From: Bacteroidia bacterium
GTDB taxonomy: Bacteria; Bacteroidota; Bacteroidia; NS11-12g; UBA9320
Direction of reading: 5' to 3'
Length of the DNA: 64,000 bases
NCBI GenBank assembly: GCA_965216465.1
Contig: CBDCFW010000006.1
Location: 1,088,001-1,152,000, forward strand
The translations under genes and the position numbers were made by a program. Below the pieces are notes generated by a model, which was given only the letters and a program-made list of their open reading frames with translations, was not told the origin of the DNA and did no database searches. Below, piece by piece: positions 12,762 through 49,825 of this stretch. The stretch's first letter is position 1, and every line of letters starts with the position of its first letter.

Positions 12762-12812
12762 CTGTTTATAAAATTAATTGGTTGAGCTGATGTGATTTCT
12801 ACCTTTGAACCG

Positions 12813-13253: not shown

Positions 13254-13275
13254 TGTTCAAAAATATATATTTGAG

Positions 13276-14273: not shown

Positions 14274-14321
14274 GGTATTAGTTTAAATTTGCAATATAAA
14301 ATCATTTCCTAACTTTGGAGA

Positions 14322-14984
14322 ATGTTGGAATTGCCTTTGTATATCTACATTCTCTTCGGACTTACAGTTTTGGCGACAATTTTAGGATTTTACTGGGCAT
14401 CAAAATCGAAGACTTTTCTAATCGTTTGTTTGAGTTGGGTAATTGTCCAGTCTGTTCTTGCTTATAACGGTGCCTTTTTAGAATTGTCCGTACTTCCACC
14501 GCGATTAATTGTGATAGGGATAGTTCCAACGTTGTTGGCCATTTTACTGATGTTCCTCACCCAAAGAGGGAGGAGTTTCATAGATGGAATTGATTTAAAA
14601 AAACTCACCTACATGCATACTATTCGGATTCCTATGGAAATCGTTTTAGTGCTGCTATTCCACCAGGGATTGATTAATGAGTTGCAAACCTTTGAAGGAA
14701 CTAACTTTGATATTATTTCAGGGATTACAGCTCCATTTGTTGCCTATTTGTGGTATAGAAAGCCTGAGAAAAAGAAGTGGCTTTTGATATGGAATATTGT
14801 ATGCTTGTTGCTGTTATTGAATGTGGTAATTACTTCAGCTTTGGCTTTCCCAACTCCACTTCAGCAATTAGGGTTTGATCAACCGAATATAGCCATGGTA
14901 TACTTCCCTTTTAATTTATTGCCTGCGGTGGTTGTTCCGCTAGTGATATTTGCACATTTAATAAGTTTTAGACGATTGAGATGA
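14322..14984 (+). CDS. Conserved hypothetical multi-pass membrane protein
   Basis: About 7 TM segments, HTIRIPME, NFDIISG, FPFNLLP motifs; TAACTTTG upstream. Confidence 0.75.
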   Translation: MLELPLYIYILFGLTVLATILGFYWASKSKTFLIVCLSWVIVQSVLAYNGAFLELSVLPPRLIVIGIVPTLLAILLMFLTQRGRSFIDGIDLKKLTYMHTIRIPMEIVLVLLFHQGLINELQTFEGTNFDIISGITAPFVAYLWYRKPEKKKWLLIWNIVCLLLLLNVVITSALAFPTPLQQLGFDQPNIAMVYFPFNLLPAVVVPLVIFAHLISFRRLR

Positions 14985-20853: not shown

Positions 20854-23800
20854 CTAATGTTTCGTAAAGCGTTTTACAACAACCCCTTTTTCTGTGTGCA
20901 GTTGCACGAAATAGACCCCAGGAGAAAGTCTTGAAATGTCAAGAGAACGATTAGTTAATGGAATTTTTAGTTCTTGACCGCTTACCGAAAAGCACTTAAT
21001 TTCATTGAGCTTGATGTTTGAATGAATGTTCAATTTGCTCATTGCTGGGTTAGGATACAACTTCATAGTCCTGGCCAACTCATTTATACCTGTAGATTGC
21101 TCAACGGTTACCTTCACGGTATAGTTCTTAGTGCTTCCATCTTGAGCGGTCACCTTGTAAACTACGTTCTTCGTGAAATTGTTGCTCGTTACCCCGCTGG
21201 TTTGAACAGTAGAACCTACCCGAACAATGGCATCTGAACTGTATGTAAAGGTCGGCACCAATTGTGTTAGACTTGTTCCAGCTGGAAGTTGAATTGTTAT
21301 GTTAGTTCCCGAAATGGTAGCCGGAGTTTCTTCTACCGTTGGAAATGCAAAACTTAAAATATCTTTCTCAGAGTTGAGCAAGTTTCTCGTTCCATTGGCA
21401 TACCAAACACCCCATTTCCCATCGGCAATTAGTACGGAAGCGTTTACGGGTTTCGGATTGATTTTGTCAGCATCAAGTTCCTGTACAGCAATAACATCAT
21501 CTCCACCTTGAGTTGCTGCATCAAAAATAATCTTGTCGTCCTTATTCGAATAGTTTGGATACCCAAGTTTGCTATGAGAAAAAATGGTTTCCGTTTCGTT
21601 GTTTAAGGTATTGGTTCCCAAAACAGCATAGCTTGCCGAATTAACATCGATGTAGTCGAAAGCTACAATATAAGGACTGTTTTTGGAGTATGTTGCATTT
21701 CCTATACTCACCCCGTCTGGAAGTTGAGTGAACAGCTTCTCAACCTTTCCATCTCCCCAATTGTCGCCAACCAGATCCCAAACACGAATCACTCCTACAT
21801 CCCAATATTCAATATCTGCTCCGGATCCATTCTCAATTACATTTCTCGCATCGTAAAGCACATATTGTCCAGTATTATCAAATTCAATGGCATCTGCAAA
21901 AAGCACGTTTCCGCCATTAACCCCTTCAGTATAGGTTGGATTATACAGCTTAAATTGCTTAAACTGAGATAACTCAAAATTGTAAACCCATATCGATGAG
22001 TCGATGTCCGTCGATATCAGGGCAAGCAAATTGCCATCTTTTGAAACTGCGACATTATCCCATGGGTCAGTGCTAATCACAGATTCTGTGTAAGGTGATG
22101 ATAAAATAATACGATGCAATTCATCTGCACTACTTACATAGTACATCACTGCACCATCATCTGTAATACTGGCCTTACGTTTGGGAGTTTTTGTGCTTAA
22201 TGCAATCCAACCATCAGGTGTAGTCGTGCTTTTATAAAAGGTGTTGGGATCTGAAGGGTTGATATCTACACTGATAATATTTTCTGTTCCTGGATTGGTT
22301 GGTAAATCAGTTCCAGAACCCGTACTTCCGCCTCCTCCTGATCCAGCATTTGGATCGAAAATTTGAACCTCGTCGAATGCAGATTTAATAGCATTTACTT
22401 CTGCAGTACCAAACAAATCATCAGCAGATTTTTCTACAGCATAACGCAGGTCTAAAAACTGCGACTGAGAAGTAAGGTAAACTACAAGTGCACGGTAGTA
22501 AATCTTCTCAGCTTTGTCTTTGCCTATAGCAGTTGCAATTAGATAGTAAGCACGATTAACAATACCGCTATTGATGTGAACACCATAGTTGTCAGCCGAG
22601 CCGGTATAGTATTCACTCATTTCTTCCGGTTGATAACCTCGATCGCTTAAACTGTTTCCTCCGTTGTGTGGATTTTGAAGATTTCGCAGTGCACCACTAG
22701 GGAAGACAGAAGTATTTACCACATCTTCTCCCATTTTCCAGTCGTCGCGATCAATCATCGCACCAAAAATGTCAGCCATACTTTCATTTATAGCTCCGCT
22801 TTGCCCTTCGTATTCCAAATTTGCTGAATTGGAAACAACTCCGTGAGTTAACTCGTGTCCGGCTACATCCAAAGCTCCTGCTAACGGTTTAAACGAAGTA
22901 CCTCCATTGCCATAAAACATTGCTTGGCCATTCCAATAAGCATTTGCCAAACTGCTGCCATCATCGTCTGAAGTGTTTACAACTGAAATTATTGTTCCTC
23001 CAGAGCCATTAATGCTGTTTCGATTGTGGGTGTTTTTGAAATAGTCGAAAGCAAGGCCCGCGTTGTAATGTGCAGACACCGAACTTTTATCACTCCAGGT
23101 GTTGTCAGAACTGGTAACATTAAATATTTCCGTTGCAGGACTATTGTCAGCGTCAATGGTCCAAATTGCTCCTACAGGATCATTAGGTATGCTGCTTTGT
23201 CCAGAGTTAAACATCGATTTGGTAGCATCTATCAGGTAGTATGTGCTTCCTTTTTGGTAAGTGTTAATGCTTCTCGATACATTATTAAGATCGGTGGCAT
23301 TGGCAGTTTTAGGTCCGTCTACGCTGCAAAGCTGATCGAGAACTTTTAACACATCTCCATTTATTGCATCAACCCAAACTTTATAATAATGAAGGTCAGT
23401 AGGTCTAATTTCAACCAAATAAACCAATTGAGGATTCAATCCACCTGCTAAGTTAAAATCAATCACCAATTCAACATCTGAATCGTAATCTAGCATTGAA
23501 AGTGCTTCTGAATGATGAGCATGAGGGTGAAGTTTATGCCCTACTTTCTCAGCAACTGACAATGCAGAAGCTTCATCAATTTTTGCTTCTGTCTCACAAT
23601 TAATGCTGGGGTAAATTCTTCCATTTGCAGCATACACGGTATTGTTGTTGCTATGGATAATCCATTCTCCACCTTTAACTTTTACATGTTTGAAATACTG
23701 GTGATACCGGTTGTGGATATGCCCTAAGTCATCCGACTTACTATCTGTTTTTACTAGTCTTGAATGCTCATTCCAGCTGAATAAGGTTGGAAGGTCAGCC

Positions 23801-24129
23801 TCTACTTTTTCTACAGAATAATTATCATCAATTTGGGATTCACCAAACCCGCCTGTAGGCTCAGGAGCGTACACTTCCAGCCAAATAGGCAGTCCTAGAT
23901 CTGTACTGTACTTTAATCTATAGCTTATCAAGCCAGCTGTTTGAGTAACCAATGTGGTCCATGTATTGGCTTGAAAATAACTTGATGAGTTTGTGTTTCT
24001 TCCATCAATTACCTCGGCTTCAAACGATTTTGGTTGATTGTTTGGTTTTTTAATACTACGCTCACTAAATGGGTTTTGGCCAAAGGCAAGCACAGGAAGA
24101 AACAAGAAGAGTGTAATAAGTTTTTTCAT
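20854..24129 (-). CDS. M4 (thermolysin/bacillolysin) metalloprotease, T9SS cargo
   Basis: Signal peptide from 24129 (MKKLITLF), FTP/PepSY-like propeptide, NAYWNG, GHELTHG (HExxH), GAINES, GVHINSG; propeller-like and Ig-like domains; YPNP...LSPGVYFV...RFTK CTD. Confidence 0.93.
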   Translation of the reverse strand: MKKLITLFLFLPVLAFGQNPFSERSIKKPNNQPKSFEAEVIDGRNTNSSSYFQANTWTTLVTQTAGLISYRLKYSTDLGLPIWLEVYAPEPTGGFGESQIDDNYSVEKVEADLPTLFSWNEHSRLVKTDSKSDDLGHIHNRYHQYFKHVKVKGGEWIIHSNNNTVYAANGRIYPSINCETEAKIDEASALSVAEKVGHKLHPHAHHSEALSMLDYDSDVELVIDFNLAGGLNPQLVYLVEIRPTDLHYYKVWVDAINGDVLKVLDQLCSVDGPKTANATDLNNVSRSINTYQKGSTYYLIDATKSMFNSGQSSIPNDPVGAIWTIDADNSPATEIFNVTSSDNTWSDKSSVSAHYNAGLAFDYFKNTHNRNSINGSGGTIISVVNTSDDDGSSLANAYWNGQAMFYGNGGTSFKPLAGALDVAGHELTHGVVSNSANLEYEGQSGAINESMADIFGAMIDRDDWKMGEDVVNTSVFPSGALRNLQNPHNGGNSLSDRGYQPEEMSEYYTGSADNYGVHINSGIVNRAYYLIATAIGKDKAEKIYYRALVVYLTSQSQFLDLRYAVEKSADDLFGTAEVNAIKSAFDEVQIFDPNAGSGGGGSTGSGTDLPTNPGTENIISVDINPSDPNTFYKSTTTPDGWIALSTKTPKRKASITDDGAVMYYVSSADELHRIILSSPYTESVISTDPWDNVAVSKDGNLLALISTDIDSSIWVYNFELSQFKQFKLYNPTYTEGVNGGNVLFADAIEFDNTGQYVLYDARNVIENGSGADIEYWDVGVIRVWDLVGDNWGDGKVEKLFTQLPDGVSIGNATYSKNSPYIVAFDYIDVNSASYAVLGTNTLNNETETIFSHSKLGYPNYSNKDDKIIFDAATQGGDDVIAVQELDADKINPKPVNASVLIADGKWGVWYANGTRNLLNSEKDILSFAFPTVEETPATISGTNITIQLPAGTSLTQLVPTFTYSSDAIVRVGSTVQTSGVTSNNFTKNVVYKVTAQDGSTKNYTVKVTVEQSTGINELARTMKLYPNPAMSKLNIHSNIKLNEIKCFSVSGQELKIPLTNRSLDISRLSPGVYFVQLHTEKGVVVKRFTKH

Positions 24130-24130
24130 A

Positions 24131-24574
24131 TCAGTTAGATGTTTTTTGGATGGATGATAATGTGTTTTTATAAAAGTCGAGTATCGCTTGAGGGGGCTTG
24201 TTCGTGTTCGACCATGCAATTTTTTTATCGTTGTTTTTCGTTTTTAATCGAATGTAGTAATTGACGTTGCCTGCTACTTTAGATTCTGAAGGTGCAGAAT
24301 CCATAGATTCAATAGTTTTGACCATGGCTTTAAATTCTTTGCGTGTTTGTTTCTCAAGAGCTTCACCTATAACCTTAGAAGTGTCCCCTAAAAATGTTTC
24401 GCTTTTAATGATTTGACCATTAGAATAGAAGTAGTATGTAGTAGCGGTAGCGGCAAAACCTCCGCTTTTTCCCATCTCAATAAGCTGGGTTGAAGGATTC
24501 TCAATTGAATACTTGTTTGAATTACACTGGGTAAAGAAGAACAGAGGCAAAAGAGCAAATAATAGCTTTCTCAT
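24131..24574 (-). CDS. Lipoprotein with emfourin-like (M4 inhibitor-like) pattern
   Basis: Lipobox-like TQC, IEMGKSGGFAA motif, YYIRL..W....PP; stop 1 nt before the protease start. Confidence 0.55.
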   Translation of the reverse strand: MRKLLFALLPLFFFTQCNSNKYSIENPSTQLIEMGKSGGFAATATTYYFYSNGQIIKSETFLGDTSKVIGEALEKQTRKEFKAMVKTIESMDSAPSESKVAGNVNYYIRLKTKNNDKKIAWSNTNKPPQAILDFYKNTLSSIQKTSN

Positions 24575-25981: not shown

Positions 25982-26875
25982 ATGTCTACAGAGATTCATA
26001 ATTACAAACTTGATAAGCGTCTTGATTTACGCACCGAGGTTTTAATTGAACGTTTAATTTTTCATTCTGAGACATCATACCTTGAAGCTGTTGAGCAGGT
26101 AAAGTTTAATCACCTTGGAGTTAAGAAGCGTGCGTTTAGGACCGAGATTGAAGCAATTAAGTACAATCACGATGATGAAGAGCTATTGGTTGGAATTAAC
26201 CGAACCAGTATATATGATCAACTTCCTGAGGTGCTGTTTCATTCTCCAAAGGTCAAGAATGATCACAACTTGAATTCGATCAAAGAAGAGTTTCAAAAAC
26301 TTAAACGCGAGGAGAAACAAGCGCGTTTGTTCTTTAGTCCATTTGATAACGAGCTTACTTTTGCATTAACTTATAATCAATTAGTTGCTCAGCAAAACGA
26401 GTCATTAGAGTTGATGAAGAAAATATGGAGTCTTCCAAATCATTTCAGTCAATCTCAAAAGCAAGCGTTTTGGAAATTCATGCCATACTTGAGGTACATT
26501 CGAGGGAACGAAGCGAATATTGAAGAGTACCTCAGCTGCACGCTTGGAGCAGCTGTGACACTCTCTTTCAGTGACAGAAAAATGGGCGATGCTACTAAAA
26601 ATACAGAACCAACATTGGGCGGAGATTTTACTCTACTGGGTCCGTTAACAGCTCCTGGAAAACAAGTAAATGTTAAGTTTATGCAACCTGATAATTGGGT
26701 AGTAACAAGCATGTATAAGTCATCTGACCTCATGAAAACTTTGGAATACTTAGTTGATCTTGTGCTTCCAGCTGACCTCTTTTTGAATGTTCTGTGTGAT
26801 GAACCGGCACAAAAATTACAAGAAATTGGCGTTGACGAAAATGCTGGTATATTAGGATTTTCCCTTTATATTTGA
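25982..26875 (+). CDS. tssG: T6SS-iii baseplate subunit TssG
   Basis: DLRTEV, NRTSIYDQLPEVLFH, EEKQARLFFSPFD motifs of Bacteroidota TssG; T6SS context. Confidence 0.8.
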   Translation: MSTEIHNYKLDKRLDLRTEVLIERLIFHSETSYLEAVEQVKFNHLGVKKRAFRTEIEAIKYNHDDEELLVGINRTSIYDQLPEVLFHSPKVKNDHNLNSIKEEFQKLKREEKQARLFFSPFDNELTFALTYNQLVAQQNESLELMKKIWSLPNHFSQSQKQAFWKFMPYLRYIRGNEANIEEYLSCTLGAAVTLSFSDRKMGDATKNTEPTLGGDFTLLGPLTAPGKQVNVKFMQPDNWVVTSMYKSSDLMKTLEYLVDLVLPADLFLNVLCDEPAQKLQEIGVDENAGILGFSLYI

Positions 26876-27737: not shown

Positions 27738-28864
27738 CAGATAATTTTGAATTTGTAAACTGGAGTGATGGAATGAAAATTAGTTCCAAGCACTTTAAAG
27801 ACTTGGAGAATGTGTTGATGAACAACGTAGTTGCTCATAGTCGAGTATCTACGAATTTTTATTCTTACGGTTTGCTTCAACCTCAAGGTGAATACAACAA
27901 CAGTTTGTCTTTTAACCTCAAACAGCATAGCCAAGATCATGTTACAATTAGTTTAGACCATTGTTTTGGAATCACCCCTGGTGGATTAGTGTTATATATC
28001 GATCACCAATTGGGTTCTACCTTGTATCAAGATAAAAAGGTACACATCCAACAAGCAGCCAACGAAAGTAGTTATTACTTAGTCCTGGGTGTGAGCATGA
28101 TGAAGCGAACTCCATCTGGTGCTATTGATAACGATGAAAAACCGATTCGTCATCAAAATGCATATTTTGAAGTAAACTTTTCACTAATTTCTGAATCAGA
28201 ATTAGATGCATCGAGCCAGTTTGACAATTATCTGGTTTTGCAGAAGTACCAGCTTGAAGGCGAGAATTTTGTTGCAGAAGATGATTATGTAGTTCCAGCG
28301 GCCTCTATACAGAGTACTGAAACTATGAGATTGTATTATAACGATACACTCGAGTTTTTTGGTGACCTTGACCGCTTTGCCATTGAAATTGTTAAAAAAT
28401 CGAGTGAGCGATCATCTTCGTTAGCCAGTAACATTGGCGAATTGGCCATGGAAGTAGCAAAACACCTTTCAACCTTAAACTTCGGGTTAAATAATATTAT
28501 ATACGAGAAACCGCCAATTTACTTGATGCAGTATTATGCAGATCTTGCTTCCCGGTTTAGATTGTTTTTCAAATTAATTGAACCAAGCGAGAAAGAAGAG
28601 CTGCTCAACTATTTTGAAGAATGGACGCAAATTAACCCCGGTCAATTCCAAGATGCTATTAAAGGCGTGTTAGGAATGCAGTACCAACATATTAACCTAG
28701 GACTTGCAATGAAGGATACTCGACGCTTTAGAGATGTAATCTATCAAGTGTTCGAAGAACTAAGCAAGCTCGACTTTATCGGCAAGCGTAAGCAAGATCT
28801 AGGTATAGTTTACGAGAAAAAGAAAAACCAAAAAGGAATATTTAGCCCAATTAAAAGGAAATGA
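27734..28864 (+). CDS. tssK: T6SS-iii baseplate subunit TssK
   Basis: VNWSDGMKISSKHF N-terminus, YGLL, CFGITPGG, terminal LSKLDFIGKRK. Confidence 0.8.
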   Translation: MTDNFEFVNWSDGMKISSKHFKDLENVLMNNVVAHSRVSTNFYSYGLLQPQGEYNNSLSFNLKQHSQDHVTISLDHCFGITPGGLVLYIDHQLGSTLYQDKKVHIQQAANESSYYLVLGVSMMKRTPSGAIDNDEKPIRHQNAYFEVNFSLISESELDASSQFDNYLVLQKYQLEGENFVAEDDYVVPAASIQSTETMRLYYNDTLEFFGDLDRFAIEIVKKSSERSSSLASNIGELAMEVAKHLSTLNFGLNNIIYEKPPIYLMQYYADLASRFRLFFKLIEPSEKEELLNYFEEWTQINPGQFQDAIKGVLGMQYQHINLGLAMKDTRRFRDVIYQVFEELSKLDFIGKRKQDLGIVYEKKKNQKGIFSPIKRK

Positions 28865-29337
28865 AACCATTAAACGAAAAAGAAATAAACTCGACATTTT
28901 TTAAGACCTTAGTGTTTTATCTTATTGCAGCCTTGGTACTTATTGTTTCAGCATTTCTTGGTATTCAGATTAGTAATGTTGAAGATAGTACATACAAGGA
29001 GTATTACGATAGCAATCAGCATATAAAATCAAATAACGAAACGCAGATTTCAGAGTACAATTCAATCAGTGATGACCTAGCACGATTGCGATTGTCGGCA
29101 GATGCGTTTGAGCGCAAAGAGCTTGAAGCTGATTTAACGGATCGAATCGCAGAACAAAGAAGAGGACTGGACTCTACACGTCATTTAGAATCTCTATTGC
29201 TTAAGAATTTCCTTGCAGGAGTGACCTTTATTGAAGAATTAGACAAGGCGGAAGAAGAGTACAACGAATTGAAAAAGAAAAATGCCGAATTAACGCGGAA
29301 ATACAACGACTGTAAAGACAGTGACCCATGGGAGTAA
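28861..29337 (+). CDS. tssO: T6SS-iii membrane protein TssO-like
   Basis: MKPLNEKE..FF then a single TM, coiled coil, terminal ..L..C motif; follows tssK. Confidence 0.65.
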   Translation: MKPLNEKEINSTFFKTLVFYLIAALVLIVSAFLGIQISNVEDSTYKEYYDSNQHIKSNNETQISEYNSISDDLARLRLSADAFERKELEADLTDRIAEQRRGLDSTRHLESLLLKNFLAGVTFIEELDKAEEEYNELKKKNAELTRKYNDCKDSDPWE

Positions 29338-29358: not shown

Positions 29359-32300
29359 ATGAAAAACCTAACTAGCCTTATTATTTGCTTGTTGTTTGCC
29401 TCAACAGGGTTCGCACAGGTGCTTGAAACTATCAAGTATGATGATGGAATTGCCCAAACCGCAACTCTTGAAAATATTCAGAATCTTGAACTAATGTACA
29501 GGCACATAGATACAAATAACACTTTAGCTCCTGTTGCTTACAATTTTTATTTTGAAGATAATACCAATCCCACTCCAGATGAATACGAAAGAACCGGCTC
29601 AGTGCCGAGTACAATGTCCACAGATAATGTTTACATAGATGGAGTGAAGGTGAGATCTGGTGGGTTAGGTAAGTTTGAGTTTTCGTTTGCTGCAGGAAAT
29701 TTTGCAACCATTAACATAACACCCAATAGGTTGACGACTGGTAGATTCGACATTAATGTAATGCAATATGATTTTTCTCGCAAGGGAATTACTATACAAA
29801 GTGCAGGGTTGGCTTGTGACACCTTTAAACTTGTAATTGCCGATAGTTCTTTCGACGCAGATGAGAACATCTTTGTTCAATACATATATGATGGTTCAGA
29901 GTATGTTGAAGAGTTAACAAGTTCAAATAATTACACGGCAAAGGTGCCTAGAGACTTAAATGCAAGCAGTAATAAGATTAGCTATTTTGTTTTTAGCTCA
30001 ACGCTTAGTCATAGTGATTTAACTATAACGGGCAATGTTGCCGAATATGATACCTTAGAAGTTCGTTTGGCTGCAATTAATTTCCCAAGTTTTCATTATC
30101 AGCATTTTGATTTTCCTACATTGTCTAATGCTTACAGTTTCATAAACGACGAAGAGCATTGCAACACCAGTACCGATGCAATTGAGCTATCGTGCTCATC
30201 TTGGCCTGATTCAACGTATCTCGAAATAACGAATACGACCAGTGGTTCCTCAACTACCTATCAAAAACAAGAAACGAATGGGCTTTCTGGTAATGCTACC
30301 TTTAACCTTCCTATAGTTCAAAATGACGATAATACTTTCACCTTAACAGTTAAAGACAGCGGGTTTTGTAACACTATTTATTCTGAAGATGTAGTAAAGA
30401 ATGAAGGGAATATTCCGGTTCCCAACAACACCTTTACCAGCGACGATGAATTGTGTTTTGATCATGGAACTGGGTCTAACATTTCGCTGGTTATGAATAC
30501 AAACTTATCCGGAGCAGACTCTATTTATCAGCTTTACGGATATTCAGCAGGAACGAATCTACCTACAACCTTCGCGGATACAAAGGTGAACACTAACTTA
30601 AATGTCAATGAGACATATACCAACTCGACTACATCTATCCATTATTTATATATCGAAACACGAGCTAAAGAAGGAACTTGTTGGTCTACAACCAGTGACT
30701 TTGACACCGTAATCTTTTATCCAGCCTTGCAACAACCAGTTATAACTTTTGCTGATTCGGCATTTTGTAGCGGAACTCAATATGTTGTTGGAATGAAAGA
30801 CATGTCGAGTTTGTCGTCTTTCATAACTGACTTTGAATTGATTGAAGACCCAAATAAAACAACCAATCCGAGTCATAGCATTACAGCAAAGGCTCCTCAT
30901 ATCGATTCATTCAATGTTACCATAACTTCTTCGAACAACAACATTCAGAATGTTCATTTGCAAGGAAAGAGTATTGGTTTCAATAATTGTGAATCTGAAC
31001 CGGTTCAAGTCACGTATAAAGCCACACGCTACCCAACAGTGAGTTCAGACGTAAATCAGTCACTTGCACTCTGCAACGGTTCTGCTTTGAACATTGAACT
31101 CGATGCATTGAACAATTCACAGTTTCGTTCTTATTTCACACAGCCCAGCAGTGGTACCATAGGAGGACTTCCAGGAGGTGAAGTCACTGGAGCAGATCTC
31201 AATATCAGTTCGGTTACCAATAACAGCAATTCCAATTCACGAATCTTTGGAATCAAATCTGTAGCTCAACGCTTAGGTTGTTTGTCTGATACATTCGAAC
31301 ATACCGTAAAGGTTATGCCACAGTCGATAAATGTTTCGATTTCTGCAACAAAAGATCCTGTTTGCTCGAACGAAGAACTTCAATTTACTGCATCAAGCTT
31401 TTTAGACAATTCGAATAATCCCAATTTAGATATTGAGCTAGATGGACAGCCTACTGATCCTTCAGGGGAATTGAGTAGAAATGGTTCACAGTCTGCTTTT
31501 ACAGGAACAACGTTTAAAGATCGACTTGTAAATCCGTCTCAGGCTACCCAAACTGCAACCTATAAGTTCACTGTAACCTACGATTCAGCAGGATTAACGT
31601 GCAACTATGCCGACGAACAAGTTTCGATAGGTGTTCGACCTAGAATTGAAAGACCACAAATCACTTTTGCTGATTCAGCCTTGTGCAGTGGACAAAATCA
31701 CATTATCACACTTCAAGATACTTCAGGGTTTGCTATTCCAAATATGACTTTTGAGAATGTTAACTCTTCAGTGGTGAACGGACCTCTAACAATTACACAT
31801 ATTGAAGAAACTTCACCGCCGTCGACCAGCATGTGGAATGCACAAGTTTCAGTACCGAGCACAAATAAAGCAGTAGGTCGAATTCGTGTTGTGTTTAGAA
31901 CGGTAGGCTTTGATAATTGTAGATCGAGCAATACACCAATAGAGATTAGTGCCACCAAAATTCCAAGTATCAATACAGACTTAACTTCTGACACGGTTTG
32001 CAACGAATCGGTATTAGACATAAACTTATCTACCGATGCAGGAATGTCAGGTGTTTGGTTCAATACACGCTTTGGTCCTGCAAATGGGAATATTACAGGA
32101 ATTCCTTTTGGAAGCGAAATAAAGCATAAAGACGTTGGGCCTTATAACATGGAGAATACAGGGAATTCATTTACCCAGAACTTTGATGTATTCTCTAGAG
32201 CTACTCGATTAGGCTGCTCATCACAAGAAATAAAACGTACACCAGTTGTTTTACCGCACCTTAATACGACTCTTACCGGAGATGATGACATTTGTTCCGA

Positions 32301-33348
32301 AGAGGAAATGACGATTTCGTTCAGAAATCAGCTGAATACTGCGCAAAATCTAAGTTACAATTATCGCCTTGATAATTTCAGTTTGCCTCAAGCGGGAAGC
32401 GTTACACGTATCAACCAAAAAGATGAAGATGACGACCTAAGTTTTACTGAGACACTCAGAAACAATACCAATGATAAGCAAACGGTAGAATATACATTCA
32501 AAGCAAACTACAGCAACCGTTGTTTTTATTCCGATGATTTAACTTGGGAAGTTACCGTAAAGCCTTGGGTAGAGTTTAGCGATCCACCTTATGTTTTAGG
32601 GGAAGATGAAGTTTGCGAAAATTCTGGAGTATTTTTCATTATTAATGAAACGGAACCAGGTGGGAATTACACATGGACGACCAGCTCAGACGTAATTGTA
32701 ACCCAAGATGCTTCAATTAATGGAGGAATCAGTGCACATTTACAATTCTTAAAATCAGGTACTGAAATCATTCGCATATCAGGTTCAAACCCATCTTTTT
32801 GTTCGCAAGAAACCCAGTTTACAGTAAATGTAAATGAGAAGATAGAGGACTTCGATGTCCTCAAAATTCAAAACGTACCGCATGACATGTTAGTCGTTAA
32901 TTTAAATGAGTACGACTCGATAAAGTGGGGAACTTTTGACAAAGCGAATGTTGAAACAAGATCAGATTTCTTGTCGACATTCCAAACCCTAGCAGTTGAC
33001 AATTTTGATCCCGATAACTATTTCTATTTCGCAGAAATATTCGATGGAAATTGTAAATCAATGAACTTTTATAACTATGGGGCTTTAGCCGGGCTTCGAG
33101 GTCTTGATCACCGTTTGATTCAAGTCTACCCAAACCCTTCGAGAAATGTAGTTCACTTGGTTTGGAAGGAAAATGGACTAGTTAAAGGTGGCGAAATTCG
33201 AAATGCTCTAGGTCAACATGTAGATTGTGAGTTTATCGATTCGGGCGGTGAGATTATCATAGATGTTGGACACCTAGCAACCGGAGCTTATTTTGGGTCT
33301 GTAATGTTAGACCAAACAATGTATCACTTTAAATTTATTAAGCAATGA
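29359..33348 (+). CDS. Large T9SS cargo protein with Cys-containing Ig/PKD-like repeats (adhesin-like)
   Basis: Signal peptide; repeated xxCSG/CNG/CSN Ig-like modules; C-terminal IQVYPNP...LATGAYF...KFIKQ type A CTD. Confidence 0.85.
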   Translation: MKNLTSLIICLLFASTGFAQVLETIKYDDGIAQTATLENIQNLELMYRHIDTNNTLAPVAYNFYFEDNTNPTPDEYERTGSVPSTMSTDNVYIDGVKVRSGGLGKFEFSFAAGNFATINITPNRLTTGRFDINVMQYDFSRKGITIQSAGLACDTFKLVIADSSFDADENIFVQYIYDGSEYVEELTSSNNYTAKVPRDLNASSNKISYFVFSSTLSHSDLTITGNVAEYDTLEVRLAAINFPSFHYQHFDFPTLSNAYSFINDEEHCNTSTDAIELSCSSWPDSTYLEITNTTSGSSTTYQKQETNGLSGNATFNLPIVQNDDNTFTLTVKDSGFCNTIYSEDVVKNEGNIPVPNNTFTSDDELCFDHGTGSNISLVMNTNLSGADSIYQLYGYSAGTNLPTTFADTKVNTNLNVNETYTNSTTSIHYLYIETRAKEGTCWSTTSDFDTVIFYPALQQPVITFADSAFCSGTQYVVGMKDMSSLSSFITDFELIEDPNKTTNPSHSITAKAPHIDSFNVTITSSNNNIQNVHLQGKSIGFNNCESEPVQVTYKATRYPTVSSDVNQSLALCNGSALNIELDALNNSQFRSYFTQPSSGTIGGLPGGEVTGADLNISSVTNNSNSNSRIFGIKSVAQRLGCLSDTFEHTVKVMPQSINVSISATKDPVCSNEELQFTASSFLDNSNNPNLDIELDGQPTDPSGELSRNGSQSAFTGTTFKDRLVNPSQATQTATYKFTVTYDSAGLTCNYADEQVSIGVRPRIERPQITFADSALCSGQNHIITLQDTSGFAIPNMTFENVNSSVVNGPLTITHIEETSPPSTSMWNAQVSVPSTNKAVGRIRVVFRTVGFDNCRSSNTPIEISATKIPSINTDLTSDTVCNESVLDINLSTDAGMSGVWFNTRFGPANGNITGIPFGSEIKHKDVGPYNMENTGNSFTQNFDVFSRATRLGCSSQEIKRTPVVLPHLNTTLTGDDDICSEEEMTISFRNQLNTAQNLSYNYRLDNFSLPQAGSVTRINQKDEDDDLSFTETLRNNTNDKQTVEYTFKANYSNRCFYSDDLTWEVTVKPWVEFSDPPYVLGEDEVCENSGVFFIINETEPGGNYTWTTSSDVIVTQDASINGGISAHLQFLKSGTEIIRISGSNPSFCSQETQFTVNVNEKIEDFDVLKIQNVPHDMLVVNLNEYDSIKWGTFDKANVETRSDFLSTFQTLAVDNFDPDNYFYFAEIFDGNCKSMNFYNYGALAGLRGLDHRLIQVYPNPSRNVVHLVWKENGLVKGGEIRNALGQHVDCEFIDSGGEIIIDVGHLATGAYFGSVMLDQTMYHFKFIKQ

Positions 33349-34792: not shown

Positions 34793-35755
34793 ATGAATAA
34801 GAGAATCTTAATAGTTTTTATATCTGTCATTATCCTTGGTTTAGCCATTATTGGTCTAAGGCTGCTACTTGAAGACGAACCTGTTGCAGCTCCAGATCCT
34901 TGTATTGGCTTCTTTACACCACTGCCATCGAGCATTGATGTAGGCCAGAGTTTTATTTTACACTCTAAAGAAGGCAACCTAAGTTGGCGAATTCTTGACG
35001 AAGAGGGAGACGAAATAGAAAGTTTTGATGGTGTTGATGGAGAGTTTACCATGGATTCTGCTGGTAGCTATTCAGTTGAGGTTACCTCAAACAAAGGTTG
35101 TTCAGAAATTACCAGTGTAGAAGTCAGAGGAAAAGAAGAGAAACCAGAAAGAAATGAAAAAGTAGAGATTAAGGGTCCAAATCGTGCGTACGTTGGAAGT
35201 AATGTCAACTTCACAGCCCTAAATGTTGATGCGAATGAGTGCAAATGGAAGATGCCCACAGGTAAGGTTATTAAGCGTAAGAGCAGTGTTTCGTACCGTT
35301 TTGAAGAAACCGGAAACTTTGAAATTAAACTAAGAGTGGATGGAGAAACCTATACCCATCGTGTGAAGGTGACTAAAAGGCAGAATGTAACAACTCCATC
35401 AACCACACCTACAACGACTCCGGTTACGCGACCTCCTGCAAACACAGGTAAAAATTCTCCTGAAAAGGTTAAAGATATAATTACTAAACTTATTGCTTTA
35501 GGTGTTGAAGATTCGGATAATTACAACCCATTTAGAGCAGCTAAGTATCGAAATAACTTTGTTATTGAAGATGAAATTTGTGAAGGTTTTGTGCTTTATG
35601 TAAATGGCAAAGAAACCAAACGAACAGACTTCTTAAGAGGCTTGGGTAAGGATGAAGGAGAAGAAGGTACTGTAGACGACGTAAAATTTAATAGAAACTC
35701 CTCAGGGTGCATCGAATCGTATGAGATTTCAGGGGTTTTCCCAAGGTTAAACTAG
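34793..35755 (+). CDS. tssP: TssP-like PKD-domain membrane protein (copy 1)
   Basis: N-terminal TM anchor, two PKD/Ig-like domains (IKGP..AYVG..V.F, W, Y.F...G.F.IKL), Thr/Pro linker, C-terminal domain with Cys pair. Confidence 0.6.
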   Translation: MNKRILIVFISVIILGLAIIGLRLLLEDEPVAAPDPCIGFFTPLPSSIDVGQSFILHSKEGNLSWRILDEEGDEIESFDGVDGEFTMDSAGSYSVEVTSNKGCSEITSVEVRGKEEKPERNEKVEIKGPNRAYVGSNVNFTALNVDANECKWKMPTGKVIKRKSSVSYRFEETGNFEIKLRVDGETYTHRVKVTKRQNVTTPSTTPTTTPVTRPPANTGKNSPEKVKDIITKLIALGVEDSDNYNPFRAAKYRNNFVIEDEICEGFVLYVNGKETKRTDFLRGLGKDEGEEGTVDDVKFNRNSSGCIESYEISGVFPRLN

Positions 35756-35766: not shown

Positions 35767-36732
35767 ATGAATAAAAGAATTTTAATATTAGTACTGGCCG
35801 TTTTATTAGTTGCAGGTGTGTTGTTCTTTCTTTCTCAACGCACAAAGTCGACTGGGCCCAAAATCGAAGTAAATGAAGAGTGTTTAGATTTTTATGAATC
35901 TCCGTCACCAAACAACTGGGCAGGCGATACAATTGATCTTAATTCAGTTTCAGAAGAAGATGAGTTAGAGTGGGTATTCATTCAAACTGAAAAAGAAGAT
36001 GTAGAGTATGAAGCGAGTGGGAATTCAACATTTATTGTTATCGATGTAGCAGGCCCATACGTAGGTATTGTTTCAAACCCTGCAGGATGTATTGATACAT
36101 TCTATTTTGAAATTGAGGAACAACTTGTTGAAGAGGAAGAAGATATCAATGTTCGAATTAAAGGACCCGGCTCAGGTATGGTCGGCCAAGAACTAGAATT
36201 TGAGGCTCGAGGTGTTACCGCTGAAAAATATGAATGGTCGATGGGAGAAGCAGGAGGAGTGATTGAGGCCGGAAATAAAATGAAGTATACCTACAATACT
36301 CCTGGTAAGTATCAAATTAAATTGCAGCTAGATAATGGCTTGTATGTTAAGTATAAAACCGTTGTAATCAATCCTGAAAGAGAAGACGTTGTTGAAACAG
36401 TTGATGAGCTAGCCAAGTTGAAAGCCAAATACGAGCAGTCTGCAAAAGCAGCAATTAATGAAATAGTTGGTTTGGGTAGTGCTGATGATTTTGACTACGA
36501 CACCGAGAAGGCAAGAGACTTATTCAATAAGAAATTCAAGAGCAATTACACGTGTGGTGATGTAACATTCGAGGTTAATGGTAAACCCATAGGAGAGCTT
36601 GCATTTTTTAGAGCTCTACAGTACAATGGGTCAACAAGTAACTACAAAGCAACTGATGTAAAATTGGAATACAACAAAGAAGATCAGTGTTTCAATAAGT
36701 ATAAAATTACCGGGTCATTCTCTGGTTTATAA
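35767..36732 (+). CDS. tssP: TssP-like PKD-domain membrane protein (copy 2)
   Basis: Starts MNKRILI like copy 1; IKGPGSGMVGQELEF, YEWSMGE, YTYNTPGKYQIKL PKD motif; C-terminal VNGK...F...C..Y.ITG shared with copy 1. Confidence 0.65.
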   Translation: MNKRILILVLAVLLVAGVLFFLSQRTKSTGPKIEVNEECLDFYESPSPNNWAGDTIDLNSVSEEDELEWVFIQTEKEDVEYEASGNSTFIVIDVAGPYVGIVSNPAGCIDTFYFEIEEQLVEEEEDINVRIKGPGSGMVGQELEFEARGVTAEKYEWSMGEAGGVIEAGNKMKYTYNTPGKYQIKLQLDNGLYVKYKTVVINPEREDVVETVDELAKLKAKYEQSAKAAINEIVGLGSADDFDYDTEKARDLFNKKFKSNYTCGDVTFEVNGKPIGELAFFRALQYNGSTSNYKATDVKLEYNKEDQCFNKYKITGSFSGL

Positions 36733-36743: not shown

Positions 36744-37358
36744 ATGAATAGATTTGTTTTAATTCTCGCATTATTTTTTCTGTCGTTCACGGCTGAAAAG
36801 GCACAAGAAAAAACGTTGTCTTTGATTTTCGTTGACAATAGTAAAATTAGTACTTCGGATGGGCTGAACAGTGCAATGATCGATAACATGGAAGCCAAAT
36901 TGACAGAGCTTGACCAACGAGCTGAATCAAATCACTTTATGTTGTACGCTTCAAATGGACTAGAACCTAAGGTTGCAAAAAGTGTAGAGGATGCTAGACA
37001 GGTTTTAGCGACATTAAATGACTCTTATTTTGAGTTCCCCATGCAGCAGTACGATAAGGATAGAATCATTGCTGAATTTACCAAAAGTGATGCTCAAGTT
37101 GGATCTTTGGATTTGAACTTCTATGTGTCCTATACTTACGCAGAGAAATTTATTACAGATCAACCGGCAGTGCTTGGAAATCTTGTGTCTGAGCTAACGA
37201 TGAAATATGGGCTGGAACGAGAAGATAAAGTGGTGATAAACCTTCACTATCCGAAGGCTCAAAACCTTCCGAAAAATATGCAGGAAAATCTTGAAGAAAG
37301 CATATCGATTCTTAAATTTGGCCTAAATGTTGAAATAAACATTCTTGAACACAATTAG
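36744..37358 (+). CDS. Secreted/periplasmic hypothetical protein within the T6SS locus
   Basis: Signal peptide; LIFVDNS start of an alpha/beta domain; lies between the tssP-like and tssR-like genes. Confidence 0.65.
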   Translation: MNRFVLILALFFLSFTAEKAQEKTLSLIFVDNSKISTSDGLNSAMIDNMEAKLTELDQRAESNHFMLYASNGLEPKVAKSVEDARQVLATLNDSYFEFPMQQYDKDRIIAEFTKSDAQVGSLDLNFYVSYTYAEKFITDQPAVLGNLVSELTMKYGLEREDKVVINLHYPKAQNLPKNMQENLEESISILKFGLNVEINILEHN

Positions 37359-39810: not shown

Positions 39811-42225
39811 ATGAAGACCATAAAGATCTCATTTTTATTTACCTTACTCAATCTTCTTACCATCTGTGCAGTTGCTCAAGATTTAAAGGGCACTCCAATA
39901 CTTCTGGAGCCTGCTGAATACACCAGACCGAATGGTCCAACCGGTGAAATAGCACAACGTTATGATGATGTTACGAGAAGACCGTGGATAGTTTATTCTG
40001 ATCGCTCAGATAACATCAGCTATACGAACGAGCAATTTAACACGAAGAAGAAGGACCTTCCTTACTTAAAGGCCTTTTTAGTTATTGCCCGAAGAGGTCA
40101 TGCTTTGCATATTGTTGATTACGGCCCCATGCATTATGCTAAAAACAAATTGAATGAGCGTCCACAAGACTACGGATGGGTTGATGAGAGAAAAATGCTG
40201 TTATGGCAAAATTCGGTTTTAGATCCAAATACAAAGATCATTACCAAAGGATTGGCGATGTTTCATTATGAGGTGCTAAAAAACCCGGGGGCTTATTTTA
40301 AGTCGAACAACATTCAGGTTTATAATAATCCAGACAAGAAGGAAGAACATGTGGCCACAAATGAGTTACAGATGTATCAATTCGTTTTCATTTACAAAGA
40401 AGAAAACGGAGCTTATTTGGTGGGTAAACAACAAAAAACCAAATACAATACCATAAGTCATGAATTGATTGGCTGGGTTGACAAAGGAACGATTCAAGTT
40501 TGGGAAGGTCGTCTGTGCCTAGAACCTAATCGATCTATCGATGCAGTTGATGAGCGCAAGAGTAAAAATGTTTCCGCTTCAATCTTCGGTACATCTTCAG
40601 ATGCGAAGTCTTTTTCAGTCGGAACAGCCGGAGGCGACCCCATTTGGGATAGTGACCCAAAGGCAACTTTAATTCCTTCGAACTTTAAACGATTTCCAGT
40701 GCTAAAAACGGAATATGGATTAGTACGAACCGGTTTCTCATCTCCCATAGTTGATGAAAGAGGAGTGGTGCTTTCTTCTGTTCAAGATAAGAACAAAAGT
40801 GATGAAAAGTACATGGACTTCCGAGAAGAAAAGAAGAAGATAAACGTAATTTTTGTGATCGATGGAAACGCAGAGAATAAGAACTTTGTAAAACCAATCA
40901 TAGAGTCTATAAAACTGAATTATAGCTATCTTGGTAACAATACCTCAAACCAATACTTCTTTGGGTCTGTAATATATCGTAAGGATGCTTATGCTTCGTG
41001 TGAGGGAGTTGATAAATCGCTACAGGTTAAAACATTAACATCAAATTACCGCGATTTAACATCGTGGTTATCGCAGTCGTTGAACGATGAACTATGCCCA
41101 GTTTCAAATGCTACAAGCTACACCAATTTAACGGATGGCTTGGCGAGAGCCAATCGCATGTTAGCAGGTAAAAGCTCAAATACAAACATCGTAATTGTAA
41201 TAGGAGCAGCTGGGGTTGAAAGTTCAAAAAGCGAAGAAATGAAGAACATTACAAATAGCCTTTCAAAGGCGAATGCTTCACTATTGGCTTTTCAAGTGAA
41301 TTCAAAGAATGATGTTGCCTTTGACAATTTCTATCGCGATATGCGGAGAATGATTGCCGGGAATGCCCGCAACATTGTCAATGATATTAAAGCTTCAAAC
41401 ATTTCTGAGCAGTTAAAAGCTTCTGTAGATATTCCTGCATGGGCACGAAATCAAGATGACTATTTCGATGAATTGGAGCAAGATAAATCACCAATTTCAG
41501 GGTCGATTTCGTTCGTTGAACTTGGTCAAGAAATGCAAGTTGCACGCTTGACTTCAGAGCTAAAGAAAACAATTCTTTCAGTAGAGAGCTGGAACAATAA
41601 GCTAATTTCTGATTTAGATGTTGCTACTCAAAGTGTGGGAGGTACAAGCGTTAAAGTAAATCCAGCTATGGTTCTCTTCTTAAAAGAATCTGGAATTGGT
41701 CTTGACGATAAAATCGTTGAAAAAATATCAGGTAAATCTTACCAGTTCTACGTAGAAGGCTATACAACTCTAACCAACGATAAACTTGATAATCCGGTTT
41801 TCACTTATCAATTGCTCATGCTAAAAAGTGAATACGATAATCTTGTTAACCGGTTCAAAAGGCTATACGAGGCAAGAGGGTCAGATAATATGGATGCTGT
41901 TCGAAAGCGGTTAAAACGTGCTTATAAAGAAGTGTTGGCTTCATACCAAGGATCGAAACAAGTCGCAATGAGAAATATGGATATTCGAATGGCACATAGT
42001 CTATTGACAGGTATTCCACCAGATCTCCAATCTCATACCATAAAGAATGTTTCCATCGATGATATTGACGACAAGCGATTGTTTTCAAATGAAGAACTGG
42101 ATGAACTTCTTAACCATATCTCAACCAACTTAAAACAGCTCGAAAGAATCCCAGTTGAGGATAGCTATATCTTTAAAAATTTCGACGACATTATGTACTG
42201 GGTTCCTGTTGACTATCTCCCCTAA
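39811..42225 (+). CDS. tssR: TssR-like periplasmic protein (copy 2)
   Basis: WIVYSDRSDN, YGWVD..KMLLW.NS, RLCLEPN, INVIFVIDG, terminal YWVPVDYLP; colinear with copy 1. Confidence 0.8.
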   Translation: MKTIKISFLFTLLNLLTICAVAQDLKGTPILLEPAEYTRPNGPTGEIAQRYDDVTRRPWIVYSDRSDNISYTNEQFNTKKKDLPYLKAFLVIARRGHALHIVDYGPMHYAKNKLNERPQDYGWVDERKMLLWQNSVLDPNTKIITKGLAMFHYEVLKNPGAYFKSNNIQVYNNPDKKEEHVATNELQMYQFVFIYKEENGAYLVGKQQKTKYNTISHELIGWVDKGTIQVWEGRLCLEPNRSIDAVDERKSKNVSASIFGTSSDAKSFSVGTAGGDPIWDSDPKATLIPSNFKRFPVLKTEYGLVRTGFSSPIVDERGVVLSSVQDKNKSDEKYMDFREEKKKINVIFVIDGNAENKNFVKPIIESIKLNYSYLGNNTSNQYFFGSVIYRKDAYASCEGVDKSLQVKTLTSNYRDLTSWLSQSLNDELCPVSNATSYTNLTDGLARANRMLAGKSSNTNIVIVIGAAGVESSKSEEMKNITNSLSKANASLLAFQVNSKNDVAFDNFYRDMRRMIAGNARNIVNDIKASNISEQLKASVDIPAWARNQDDYFDELEQDKSPISGSISFVELGQEMQVARLTSELKKTILSVESWNNKLISDLDVATQSVGGTSVKVNPAMVLFLKESGIGLDDKIVEKISGKSYQFYVEGYTTLTNDKLDNPVFTYQLLMLKSEYDNLVNRFKRLYEARGSDNMDAVRKRLKRAYKEVLASYQGSKQVAMRNMDIRMAHSLLTGIPPDLQSHTIKNVSIDDIDDKRLFSNEELDELLNHISTNLKQLERIPVEDSYIFKNFDDIMYWVPVDYLP

Positions 42226-46863: not shown

Positions 46864-49353
46864 TTGGAAACTAACCTGTCAATTAATGAATCCCTCAAGG
46901 ATGCGGTGAATATTGCTAAAAAAATAGCAAAAGAGAACTCAAACGCCGAATTTTCATCCTCCCATTTACTTCTTGCTTTGATGCATAAATCTATCGGATT
47001 TACTGCTTTTTTACGTGAACTTGGCAAGGATGTTAATTACATTAAAGAATGGGCCCAAATACGCATAGATGAACTTCCAAAATCAGGTAAAGTTTCTGAA
47101 GAAATAAACGGTGATGATAAGGTTAGAAATGCCTTTGATGAAGCTGACAATTATAGACTGAAATTTGGCTTGCTTGAAAGCAATCCAGTATGCGTTTTTT
47201 TAGGACTAATCAGACCAAATATTGGGTTTGATGTTAATGAGCTGAAGTCTTTCCCTGTTATTGAAAAAGAAGTCTTAGACATATACTTCAATAACCAAGA
47301 AGTAGCCACATCAATTTCGGGTGATTCAACAGGTCAAAGTGCACCTACCACAACAAAGAAATCTAAAGCTTCATTGTTGAAATATTGCAATGATAAAACA
47401 GCAGATGCAAAAGCTCAGTTGAATGACCCCGTTGTAGGTCGTGATAAAGAGGTTCGACAAATGATTGAAATTCTTTGTCGTCGATCTAAGCCGAATGTGA
47501 TTTTAATTGGAGAACCAGGTGTTGGTAAGTCTGCATTGGTTGAAAGTTTTTCTTATGTTGTGTCTACCGAAGATGTGCCTGTTGCATTAAAAAATGCTAA
47601 TGTATATGAATTAGATTCAGGAACATTGTTAGCAGGGGCATCTTATAAAGGAGAAATTGAAGATCGAGTCAAAGGAATTTTAAAAGATGTTAAGTCTGAA
47701 GAGAAAGCGATTCTTTTCATTGATGAGATACATGCTATCTTAGACCCTAAAGGTCCATTTGGAGCGGGTTTAGCAAATCTGCTCAAGCCAGAACTTGCTA
47801 GAGGCGAGATTACTATTATTGGAGCAACCACCACAGACGAGTATCGTAAGCTGATTGAACCTGAGCGAGCGTTCAGCAGAAGATTCGAGTTGGTTCAAGT
47901 TGAAGAACCTACCGTGTCAACTGCAATAAAAATGTTGGATGCAGTGGTGCCAAAATATTCAGAGCATCATGGTTTGTCGCTAACCGATGATGTAACTACA
48001 AGCTGCGTTACATTAGCAAAACGTTACAGCAAAGAAAGAAGACTGCCTGATTCGGCAATTGACTTGCTAGACCGAACCATGTCAAGTATTAAAACCCTTA
48101 AGGAGCTTACAGAGGTTAAATTGGTTGAGTTTGTTAGTGAATTAGAAAATGTTACATCTTCAGAAGAAAGTGACGAGAGTAAACTCAATACATTTGCTTG
48201 GATTCACAAGCAAATTCAAGATACAATCAGTCCTATTTTAATAGGCTCGGTTGAAGATGAAATTGATTGGGATTCAGGATTCAGTCCAGAACAAATAAAT
48301 TCTGTGTTAAACGATTATATAGGTAGCCTACGGTCAAAATTTGAACAACGAAAGGAGTCGACAGAAATTGATTCTGAAGACGTCGCTACCCTAATAGCTT
48401 CAAGTACAGGAATTCCTATCGGAAAGATTCAAAGTGATGAGCAAGCAAAGCTCATGAATATTGAAAATATTGTTCGTCAACGTGTTGTTGGTCAAGATCA
48501 CGCAATTAAGTCTTTGGCTGATGCAATTATCGAATCGCGGTCTGGACTAACCAAGAAAGGAAAACCTATAGGTTCATTCTTCTTCCTTGGACCTACCGGT
48601 ACGGGTAAGACAGAGGTAGCGAAAGGAATCGCGGACTTTTTATTTAATGATGAAAAGGCCATGATTCGCTTCGATATGTCTGAGTTTAAAGAAGAGCACA
48701 GTGCAGCGTTGCTATATGGAGCACCTCCGGGCTATGTTGGATACGAAGAAGGTGGGGTTCTAGTGAACAAGATTAGAGAGACACCTTATGCGGTTGTTCT
48801 CTTCGATGAGATTGAAAAAGCGCATCCTTCGGTATTTGATATCTTCTTACAAATCTTGGACGAAGGAGTGATGCACGATAGATTGGGTAAAGAGGGAGAT
48901 TTCTCTAACTCGATTATTCTATTTACAAGTAACATAGCGAGCGATTGGATTGTTGAGCAGTTCTCGGAAGGAGTAAAACCAAAGTCGAACGACTTGCTTG
49001 AGAAAATGGCACCTTATTTCCGTCCAGAGTTTTTAGCTCGACTTACGGAGATTATTCCATTTGCACCTATTGCTAAAGAGAATGTATTGAAGATTTTGGA
49101 TATTCATTCGAAAGATTTATTCAAAACACTGGATAAGCTTGGTATTGCGATTACAATCAGCGACCAGGCAAAAGAAATATTGGTAGAAAAAGGATATACA
49201 CCAAAATATGGGGCAAGACCTATTGTTGGAGTAATCAGAAACTACCTACGACGACCAATTTCGAAACTTATAGTAAGTGGAGAATTAAAGTCAGGGCACA
49301 CAGTTGAAGTTGATGTGTCAGATACAAATGAATTAACTTATAATATTAAATAA
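46864..49353 (+). CDS. tssH: T6SS AAA+ ATPase TssH/ClpV
   Basis: Two AAA modules ([15 protein letters not shown]; [17 protein letters not shown]), GAPPGYVGY; directly before the sheath genes. Confidence 0.9.
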
Positions 49354-49358
49354 TAAAT

Positions 49359-49814: not shown

Positions 49815-49825
49815 TAAGTAGAGTA

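Follow-up and report, generated by a model that had tools for sequence, protein, structure and literature searches.

The 64,000-nucleotide stretch of DNA analysed here (the window; positions 1,088,001 to 1,152,000 of contig CBDCFW010000006.1, Bacteroidia bacterium, assembly GCA_965216465.1) carries a complete operon of about 30 kb for a type VI secretion system (T6SS) of subtype iii, and inside this T6SS-iii operon lies P0001, a gene for a predicted cargo protein of the type IX secretion system (T9SS). P0001 is followed by a gene for an outer-membrane beta-barrel protein, and both are placed between tssO and tssP, i.e., among the genes for the membrane complex. In coordinates of the window the features concerned are:

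29359..33348, + strand: P0001, ATG start, 1329 amino acids (aa), predicted T9SS type A cargo
33124..33345, + strand: C-terminal sorting domain (type A) of the P0001 protein, matched by TIGR04183 and PF18962
33345..34790, + strand: outer-membrane beta-barrel protein, 481 aa, OMP_b-brl_2 29.4 bits (cut-off 27)

A type A sorting domain routes a Sec-exported protein through the T9SS, after which the domain is cleaved off and the cargo becomes attached to the cell surface or is released. The P0001 protein bears the sequence hallmarks of such a cargo. It begins with a signal-peptide-like stretch (aa 1–20), followed by an unassigned beta-rich N-terminal domain of about 240 aa (aa 21–257), a region of modules (aa 258–1165), a linker domain of about 90 aa (aa 1166–1255) and the sorting domain, which makes up the last 74 residues (aa 1256–1329). 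Judged by hydropathy, the N-terminus (MKNLTSLIICLLFASTGFA/QV) fits a Sec signal peptide, with a hydrophobic core at residues 4–19, a GFA/Q junction and a Kyte-Doolittle mean that reaches 2.7 in an 11-residue window; no 19-residue segment in the rest of the protein exceeds a hydropathy of 1.43. TIGR04183 matched residues 1256–1329 with 27.6 bits in the context of the whole protein and with 31.8 bits when the last 100 aa were searched alone (cut-off 23), the corresponding scores of PF18962 being 27.1 and 29.4 bits (cut-off 27), and a type B sorting domain (CHU_C or TIGR04131) was not among the Pfam and NCBIfam matches at E ≤ 1. An earlier note on this DNA had described a 1329-aa protein with a Sec signal and a type A C-terminal domain and had named the TIGR04183 model as a check on the latter; the open reading frame (ORF) call, the hydropathy and both domain models agree with that description. 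A second type A cargo is encoded upstream of the T6SS locus, an M4 thermolysin-like peptidase of 1121 aa (20854..24219, – strand) with a type A sorting-domain match of 38.8–46.6 bits, which indicates that the genome uses the T9SS tag. The O-glycosylation motif D[ST][AILVMT] is not enriched in P0001 (9 against 6.4 ± 2.5 expected).

The middle of P0001 consists of nine modules of about 100 aa, every one bounded by a pair of Cys residues (268/279–337, 366–441, 470–544, 572–641, 669–748, 776–854, 881–953, 979–1055, and 1086–1148). Self-BLAST of the protein gave no internal repeat at E < 1e-3, so the modules are seen only via this Cys frame and by eye. PKD_5 was above its cut-off in one of the nine modules (32.6 bits, cut-off 25) and PKD_6 remained sub-threshold on the last one (18.6 bits, cut-off 25). 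When the nine modules were aligned with five from the counterpart locus L001 (see below), the two Cys were the sole conserved columns. An AlphaFold2 model of the module at 562–658, built on this 14-module alignment, was all-beta with seven strands and a mean pLDDT of 80.7, and its neighbours in a Foldseek search of the PDB were Ig-like sandwiches only, at a TM of about 0.5 and with no match at E ≤ 0.001. Among these neighbours were Ig-like domains of GhpA of Aureispira, a weak match at a TM of 0.55–0.57. The modules had been called Cys-bridged and Ig/PKD-like: the second half of this is right as far as the fold class goes, as judged from the model, the Foldseek neighbours and the single PKD_5 match, and from the conserved Cys we may reasonably infer the bridge. 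A sequence search of the PDB with P0001 gave nothing below E 0.86. No catalytic family and no Tss family model in Pfam or NCBIfam matched the protein, and hhalign found no relation between its modules and TssP (probability 0.04%); on these profiles P0001 is not one of the five membrane-complex parts (TssN/O/P/Q/R).

The ATG of P0001 is separated by 21 nt from the TAA stop of the upstream ORF (28861..29337), and its own TGA stop overlaps the ATG of the barrel gene as ATGA, so that both junctions are as the earlier note gave them. The run of same-strand genes to which they belong is unbroken from position 24890 to at least position 61082, with gaps between –14 and 85 nt. Subtype iii is marked in the window by PF17555 (125.2 bits), the TssR domains, PF17541 (699.6 bits), PF17642 (152.4 bits) and a ClpV-like AAA+ protein; the gene set is that of subtype iii and not that of the cis-type subtype iv. 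The claim that the P0001 gene lies inside a T6SS operon is thereby borne out by gene set and junctions alike. Between 24000 and 38000 there was no excess of sigma-70-type promoters (32 sites against 40.6 ± 5.5 expected) or of terminators (11 against 8.3 ± 3.2). A Bacteroidota-type promoter motif occurred 4 times against 4.1 expected, with none on the + strand inside the locus. As these scans are uninformative, it is the gene spacing on which the operon claim rests. Apart from P0001 and the barrel gene the operon contains the following, where L001 to L005 are T6SS-iii loci used for comparison:

24890–25896: operon start, two small exported paralogs (152 and 183 aa) with a common motif SKSSDYQNITK and a 4-nt overlap, no family match
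25982..26875, + strand: TssG-like baseplate protein, about 29 bits to the annotated TssG of L003 and L005
26898..27737, + strand: TssN, PF17555 125.2 bits
27734..28864, + strand: TssK, 102–130 bits to proteins of L002–L005; TIGR03353 33.7 bits, below cut-off
28861..29337, + strand: TssO-like protein, 158 aa, one transmembrane segment and a helical region, positioned after tssK
34793..35755 and 35767..36732, + strand: two tandem TssP paralogs, N-terminal transmembrane segment and PKD (27.8 and 24.7 bits)
36744..37358, + strand: exported protein, 204 aa, no family match, kept at the same position in L001
37345..39798 and 39811..42225, + strand: two tandem TssR paralogs, each with all four TssR Pfam domains, 32% mutual identity
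42228..44684, + strand: MacB/LolD-like fusion of an ABC ATPase and an FtsX-type permease, about 817 aa, directly after tssR, conserved in L001
44681..46822, + strand: envelope protein, 713 aa, thrombospondin type 3 (TSP3) repeats and a TraB-like C-terminal region
46864..56437, + strand: core genes for ClpV, TssB, TssC (699.6 bits), Hcp, VgrG, TssE, TssF, and PAAR

The assignments differ in how well they are supported. The protein of L005 that TssK matches is annotated as TssK and those of L002–L004 as hypothetical. For the ORF upstream of P0001, which the earlier note called tssO, the spacing is right and the label is weak: there is no Pfam match, the ORF reaches 13–17 bits against proteins of two T6SS-iii loci, one annotated as TssO and the other as hypothetical, and it is called TssO-like because of its position after tssK and its transmembrane and helical shape. 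The two TssP paralogs find their matches in the PKD-domain proteins encoded after tssO in L004 and L005 and have the shape of TssP as given in the available part of PMC10781749. The TTG start of the first TssR gene creates a 14-nt overlap with the preceding gene and a protein of 817 aa; the library version of this protein (P0009) has 810 aa, and the true start is therefore probably slightly downstream. The gene for the 713-aa TSP3 protein overlaps the ABC gene by 4 nt, and the C-terminal region of its product scored 80.6 bits, far below cut-off, against the Myxococcus outer-membrane exchange protein TraB. A probable effector region (55925–63653) follows tssF, with PAAR, three ORFs without a family, a DUF4123 adaptor-like protein, a further family-less ORF of 280 aa, an M23 peptidase, and a WD40-repeat protein. 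On the other side, just upstream of the T6SS locus, a LuxR-type response regulator is encoded at 20143–20814 (+ strand). Further away are a 413-aa protein with a Peptidase_S74 (endosialidase chaperone) domain (18627–19868, – strand), a domain usual in tail-spike-like fibres, and a gene pair for an MbnP-like and an MbnH-like (di-haem peroxidase) protein at 11029–12761.

The arrangement of the window was found once more. An alignment of one library match with the two TssR paralogs, used to scan genomes, yielded from 153 pattern matches one locus with the same synteny, L001 of Chitinophagaceae bacterium UBA4407. Its contig begins within a gene whose last 649 aa hold five modules with a Cys frame as well as a sorting domain of type A (38.6 bits with TIGR04183, 45.6 bits with PF18962), and this fragment is followed in order by genes for a barrel, TssP, a 214-aa protein, three TssR proteins, the ABC fusion, ClpV, TssB, and TssC. 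The barrel protein (627 aa) is 27% identical to that of the window over 274 aa (E 4e-10), the 214-aa protein (5003..5647) 27% identical to the 204-aa protein over 120 aa, and the MacB-like ABC fusion (12366..14816) 37% identical over its full length. Between window and L001, ClpV is 58%, TssB 48%, and TssR 27% identical, the corresponding values for Capnocytophaga and Hymenobacter, which belong to other orders, being 51–53, 43–45, and 20–22%; by these figures the two loci are deeply diverged. The co-encoding of a T9SS cargo with a T6SS-iii is thus real and has been conserved once across a large distance. The earlier note had reckoned with the idea failing if homologs were mostly unlinked to T6SS; the sole counterpart by synteny so far lies in the same T6SS-iii slot. 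Three further observations on L001 may be added. Its barrel protein contains one TSP3-like stretch (residues 181–213), and the locus has no gene for the 713-aa TSP3 protein; the place between ABC fusion and clpV, where that gene stands in the window, is taken in L001 by 855 nt of AT-rich DNA without an ORF of at least 90 aa (14817–15671). The middle one of its three TssR genes, which lie within 5658–12350, encodes a protein of 483 aa without the VWA domain.

The two slot proteins themselves are only weakly alike. P0001 and the L001 fragment align in the same order with 37.4 and 35.0 bits, and the similarity of the repeat regions gave z = 8.2 over composition-preserving shuffles, none of 200 reaching it (a control region of the M4 peptidase gave z = –0.2). 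The segment that precedes the sorting domain was considered as evidence of orthology and dropped, as it gave z = 2.35 (22 of 500 shuffles) and an unrelated control pair z = 3.99. The case for a conserved cassette is consequently built on synteny, shared architecture and the homologous barrel, and not on orthology of the stalk sequence. The best reading of the P0001 and barrel genes is that they form a lineage-specific two-gene accessory cassette, and the ATGA overlap together with the same pairing in L001 suggests that the two proteins are produced in step and perhaps bind each other.

Loci elsewhere are organised without the cassette. A tblastn search with TssC identified T6SS-iii loci in 10 plasmid records, of which four were examined, from Bernardetia, Hymenobacter, Tenacibaculum (L004), and Capnocytophaga (L005). 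In the two of these four in which the block is visible, L004 and L005, tssO is directly followed by a PKD-domain gene (tssP) and then by tssR. No T9SS-sorting protein is annotated in the four loci, nor is the MacB-like ABC fusion among their annotated genes, and neither P0001 nor the barrel protein had a tblastn match on plasmids. A part of this kind, with a sorting-domain protein in none of the four, is hence not general in T6SS-iii. Relatives are scarce in protein libraries as well. P0001 has no close relative in about 15 billion library proteins: a word-indexed search returned the query only (1 match among 7998 scored candidates), and phmmer with residues 1–1200 against 1.84 billion representatives recovered, at E ≤ 0.001, the query and six further proteins, of which the best scored 70.6 bits. 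All six relatives match via the repeat modules only; PKD_5 is present in five of them and a type B CHU_C domain in three, one of which also has SprB repeats, and none carries a type A domain. TssN of the window likewise found only itself in the word-indexed search (1 among 1579), and a profile of the TssR paralogs found the query and one other protein. As these are nearly as isolated as P0001, the lineage itself is poorly sampled.

According to the available part of PMC10781749 the T6SS-iii membrane complex is formed by TssN, TssQ, TssO, and TssP together with TssR, the first four being transmembrane-helix proteins, TssP with PKD-like domains in addition to its helix, and TssR a lipoprotein, and tssO and tssQ usually adjoin tssP. 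With this Bacteroides fragilis TssNQOPR system the window has in common that the P0001 gene stands among tssN, tssK, tssO, tssP, and tssR and that TssP has PKD-like domains; it differs in that P0001 is no member of the complex and has no profile similarity to TssP. The text of that paper contains neither 'T9SS' nor 'type IX', and a term search of it gave no 'outer membrane'; PMC13584744, a review from 2026 on accessory factors of the T6SS, contains neither 'T9SS' nor 'antenna'. Full-text literature searches, at the level of titles and the starts of abstracts and with subscription-only papers and supplements lying outside, gave no description of a T6SS-iii locus that includes a gene for a T9SS cargo. 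From T9SS type A cargo of the Ig/PKD-repeat kind in Bacteroidota, with which it shares the signal peptide, the repeat modules and a terminal sorting domain above cut-off, P0001 differs in being without a close library relative and in being encoded inside a T6SS-iii operon. Pairs of the SprB/SprF type consist of a type B sorting-domain adhesin and a PorP-like anchor. The window resembles such pairs in that a large repeat gene is followed by an outer-membrane barrel gene, and an SprB-repeat protein is among the relatives of P0001; the difference is that the sorting domain of P0001 is of type A and that the barrel falls outside PorP/SprF by the models used.

A loose parallel comes from the predator Aureispira, to which the earlier note had referred for its combination of T9SS-secreted grappling hooks with a T6SS. 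In the available part of the report by Lien et al. (10.1101/2024.01.29.577165) the hooks are heptamers of GhpA, a T9SS substrate of 5898 aa, encoded in a ghpABC cluster of its own together with homologs of PorP and PorE, apart from the T6SS genes, and the T6SS used for killing is of subtype iv (cis1–cis16). Aureispira shows that T9SS cargo and a T6SS can cooperate, but as a precedent it is looser than the earlier note had it, and it offers no example of a T6SS-iii operon that contains a cargo gene. As far as described there, ghpABC is like the cassette in pairing a T9SS substrate of disulfide-bearing Ig-like domains with a following outer-membrane barrel gene as presumed anchor, and unlike it in that a PorP homolog serves as the barrel there, while the barrel of the window matched no PorP/SprF model. 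The T6SS-iv of Aureispira also carries antennae, which are extracellular, C6-symmetric, 82–132 nm long, and have no gene assigned in the available text; Lien et al. (10.1101/2024.01.29.577165) speculated on contact signalling, and their function is called unknown in the accessible part of a 2025 review. The antennae are comparable to the stalk proposed below as an outside structure over a contractile secretion machine in Bacteroidota, and differ in that they belong to a T6SS-iv and not a T6SS-iii, and that in the sources as available they have not been linked to any gene or to P0001.

The reading that we favour, tentatively and at a probability of roughly 0.45, is that P0001 is a T9SS-exported surface stalk that is made together with the T6SS and serves, with the barrel, in contact-dependent firing. 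Sec would carry the protein across the inner membrane and the T9SS across the outer one, and its roughly nine Ig-like modules would project from the cell as a stalk, which by estimate would extend over a few tens of nanometres, with the N-terminal domain at its distal end. The cassette would have been inserted between tssO and tssP in the membrane-complex block of the operon, and from this position stalk and barrel would be made together with the envelope parts of the T6SS. The barrel is probably a surface anchor or docking point, and the two proteins would take part in firing at the cell surface as a target tether or an antenna-like contact element. The interpretation in the earlier note, a surface tether or target sensor co-expressed with the T6SS-iii, is thus partly borne out, by the cargo hallmarks and the operon position, its functional side being conjecture.

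Several observations weigh against this. The link between cassette and T6SS-iii is supported by one further locus, on a contig that starts inside a gene so that tssO and tssK upstream are out of sight. P0001 is less similar in its stalk to the L001 protein than it is to an SprB-like protein without relation to it (70.6 bits), the stretch preceding the sorting domain falls short of significance when taken alone (z = 2.35; 22 of 500), and different repeat proteins may have entered the slot independently in the two lineages. Among the 63 ORFs of at least 250 aa in the four plasmid loci none matched PF18962 or CHU_C in its C-terminal 100 aa, in a scan that recovered both P0001 and its L001 counterpart. 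The Pfam score for the sorting domain is borderline on the whole protein (27.1 against a cut-off of 27), and the 64-kb window is without any T9SS machinery gene. The barrel protein matches no PorP/SprF model (OMP_b-brl_2 was the only match in Pfam, and NCBIfam had none at E ≤ 1), so that anchoring of the kind seen in type B cargo should not be taken for granted here, and type A cargo is frequently released rather than retained. Finally, a single-sequence model of aa 21–257, the distal end of the proposed stalk, was unusable (pLDDT 41).

Of the other explanations, the one that survives best, although we regard it as unlikely, is that the cassette is a passenger, i.e., a surface or secreted T9SS pair of an ordinary kind, used for instance in attaching to particles or in biofilms, that is carried in the operon and has no role in the T6SS. 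Genes for sorting-domain proteins are common, TIGR04183 being present in 2 of the 47 ORFs of at least 150 aa in the window, and a single one in an operon of 27 genes is therefore not rare by itself. All four other T6SS-iii loci work without a sorting-domain protein, the nearest sequence matches of P0001 are surface-type repeat proteins, three of six with a type B domain, and the two slot proteins are only weakly similar. On the other hand the cassette sits in mid-block among membrane-complex genes and not at the edge of the operon, tied in by the 21-nt gap and the 4-nt overlap. That the same slot is likewise filled in L001, where TssR is only 27% identical, lifts the position of P0001 above chance. 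Nor does base composition give a sign of recent arrival, the GC content of P0001 (0.387; 0.327 at third codon positions) lying within the range of the neighbouring genes (0.35–0.41; 0.29–0.38) and that of the barrel gene being like its neighbours as well.

Considerably less probable is that barrel and stalk are integral envelope parts, which form an outer-membrane passage or cap and are needed for assembly or firing, the T9SS tag serving only to place the stalk. The location of the cassette inside the tssN-K-O-P-R block would agree with this, and so would the further extra envelope genes of the operon (the doubled TssP and TssR, the MacB-like ABC fusion and the TSP3 protein), which are partly common to L001. 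It would agree, too, with the available text of PMC10781749, where 'outer membrane' is not found and where TssR is a lipoprotein beside the transmembrane-helix proteins TssN, TssQ, TssO, and TssP. Against it speak the hhalign probability of 0.04% between modules and TssP, the lack of any sorting-domain protein in the four other T6SS-iii loci, and the fast sequence divergence, which resembles that of an exposed surface protein more than that of a core structural part. Least probable is a released factor, in which cleavage of the sorting domain would free P0001 as a soluble binding or enzymatic factor that is co-regulated with the T6SS and acts at a distance: type A cargo is often released and the 240-aa N-terminal domain could be a lectin or an enzyme, but no catalytic family was detected in the protein, and a long stalk of Ig repeats with a coupled barrel gene suits a retained appendage better.

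The proposal of a surface stalk used in contact-dependent firing can be taken further. It is tempting to speculate, although we consider this rather improbable, somewhat more so than a passenger cassette, that the stalk belongs to the T6SS-iii machine itself as an outside part, delivered by the T9SS, held by the barrel over the membrane complex, and gating the firing by sensing or gripping the target. The only extracellular T6SS-associated structures described in the sources as available are the antennae of Aureispira and simpler structures of Myxococcus, to neither of which a gene is assigned. If the stalk were such a part, an extracellular T6SS element would for the first time have a gene to its name, one secretion system having to build part of another would be without earlier example, and T9SS cargo genes would become candidates for the T6SS-iv antennae of Aureispira. 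If the cassette is a passenger, P0001 would be merely another fast-evolving surface protein. What is new is a type of T6SS-iii locus with an embedded cassette of T9SS cargo and barrel. The T6SS-iii membrane complex has been defined only recently, and the way in which the outer membrane is crossed and action is exerted beyond it is at issue. An operon slot that holds a T9SS cargo and a barrel offers a concrete candidate for an outside part of the T6SS, and it also points to a dependence in function between two Bacteroidota secretion systems.

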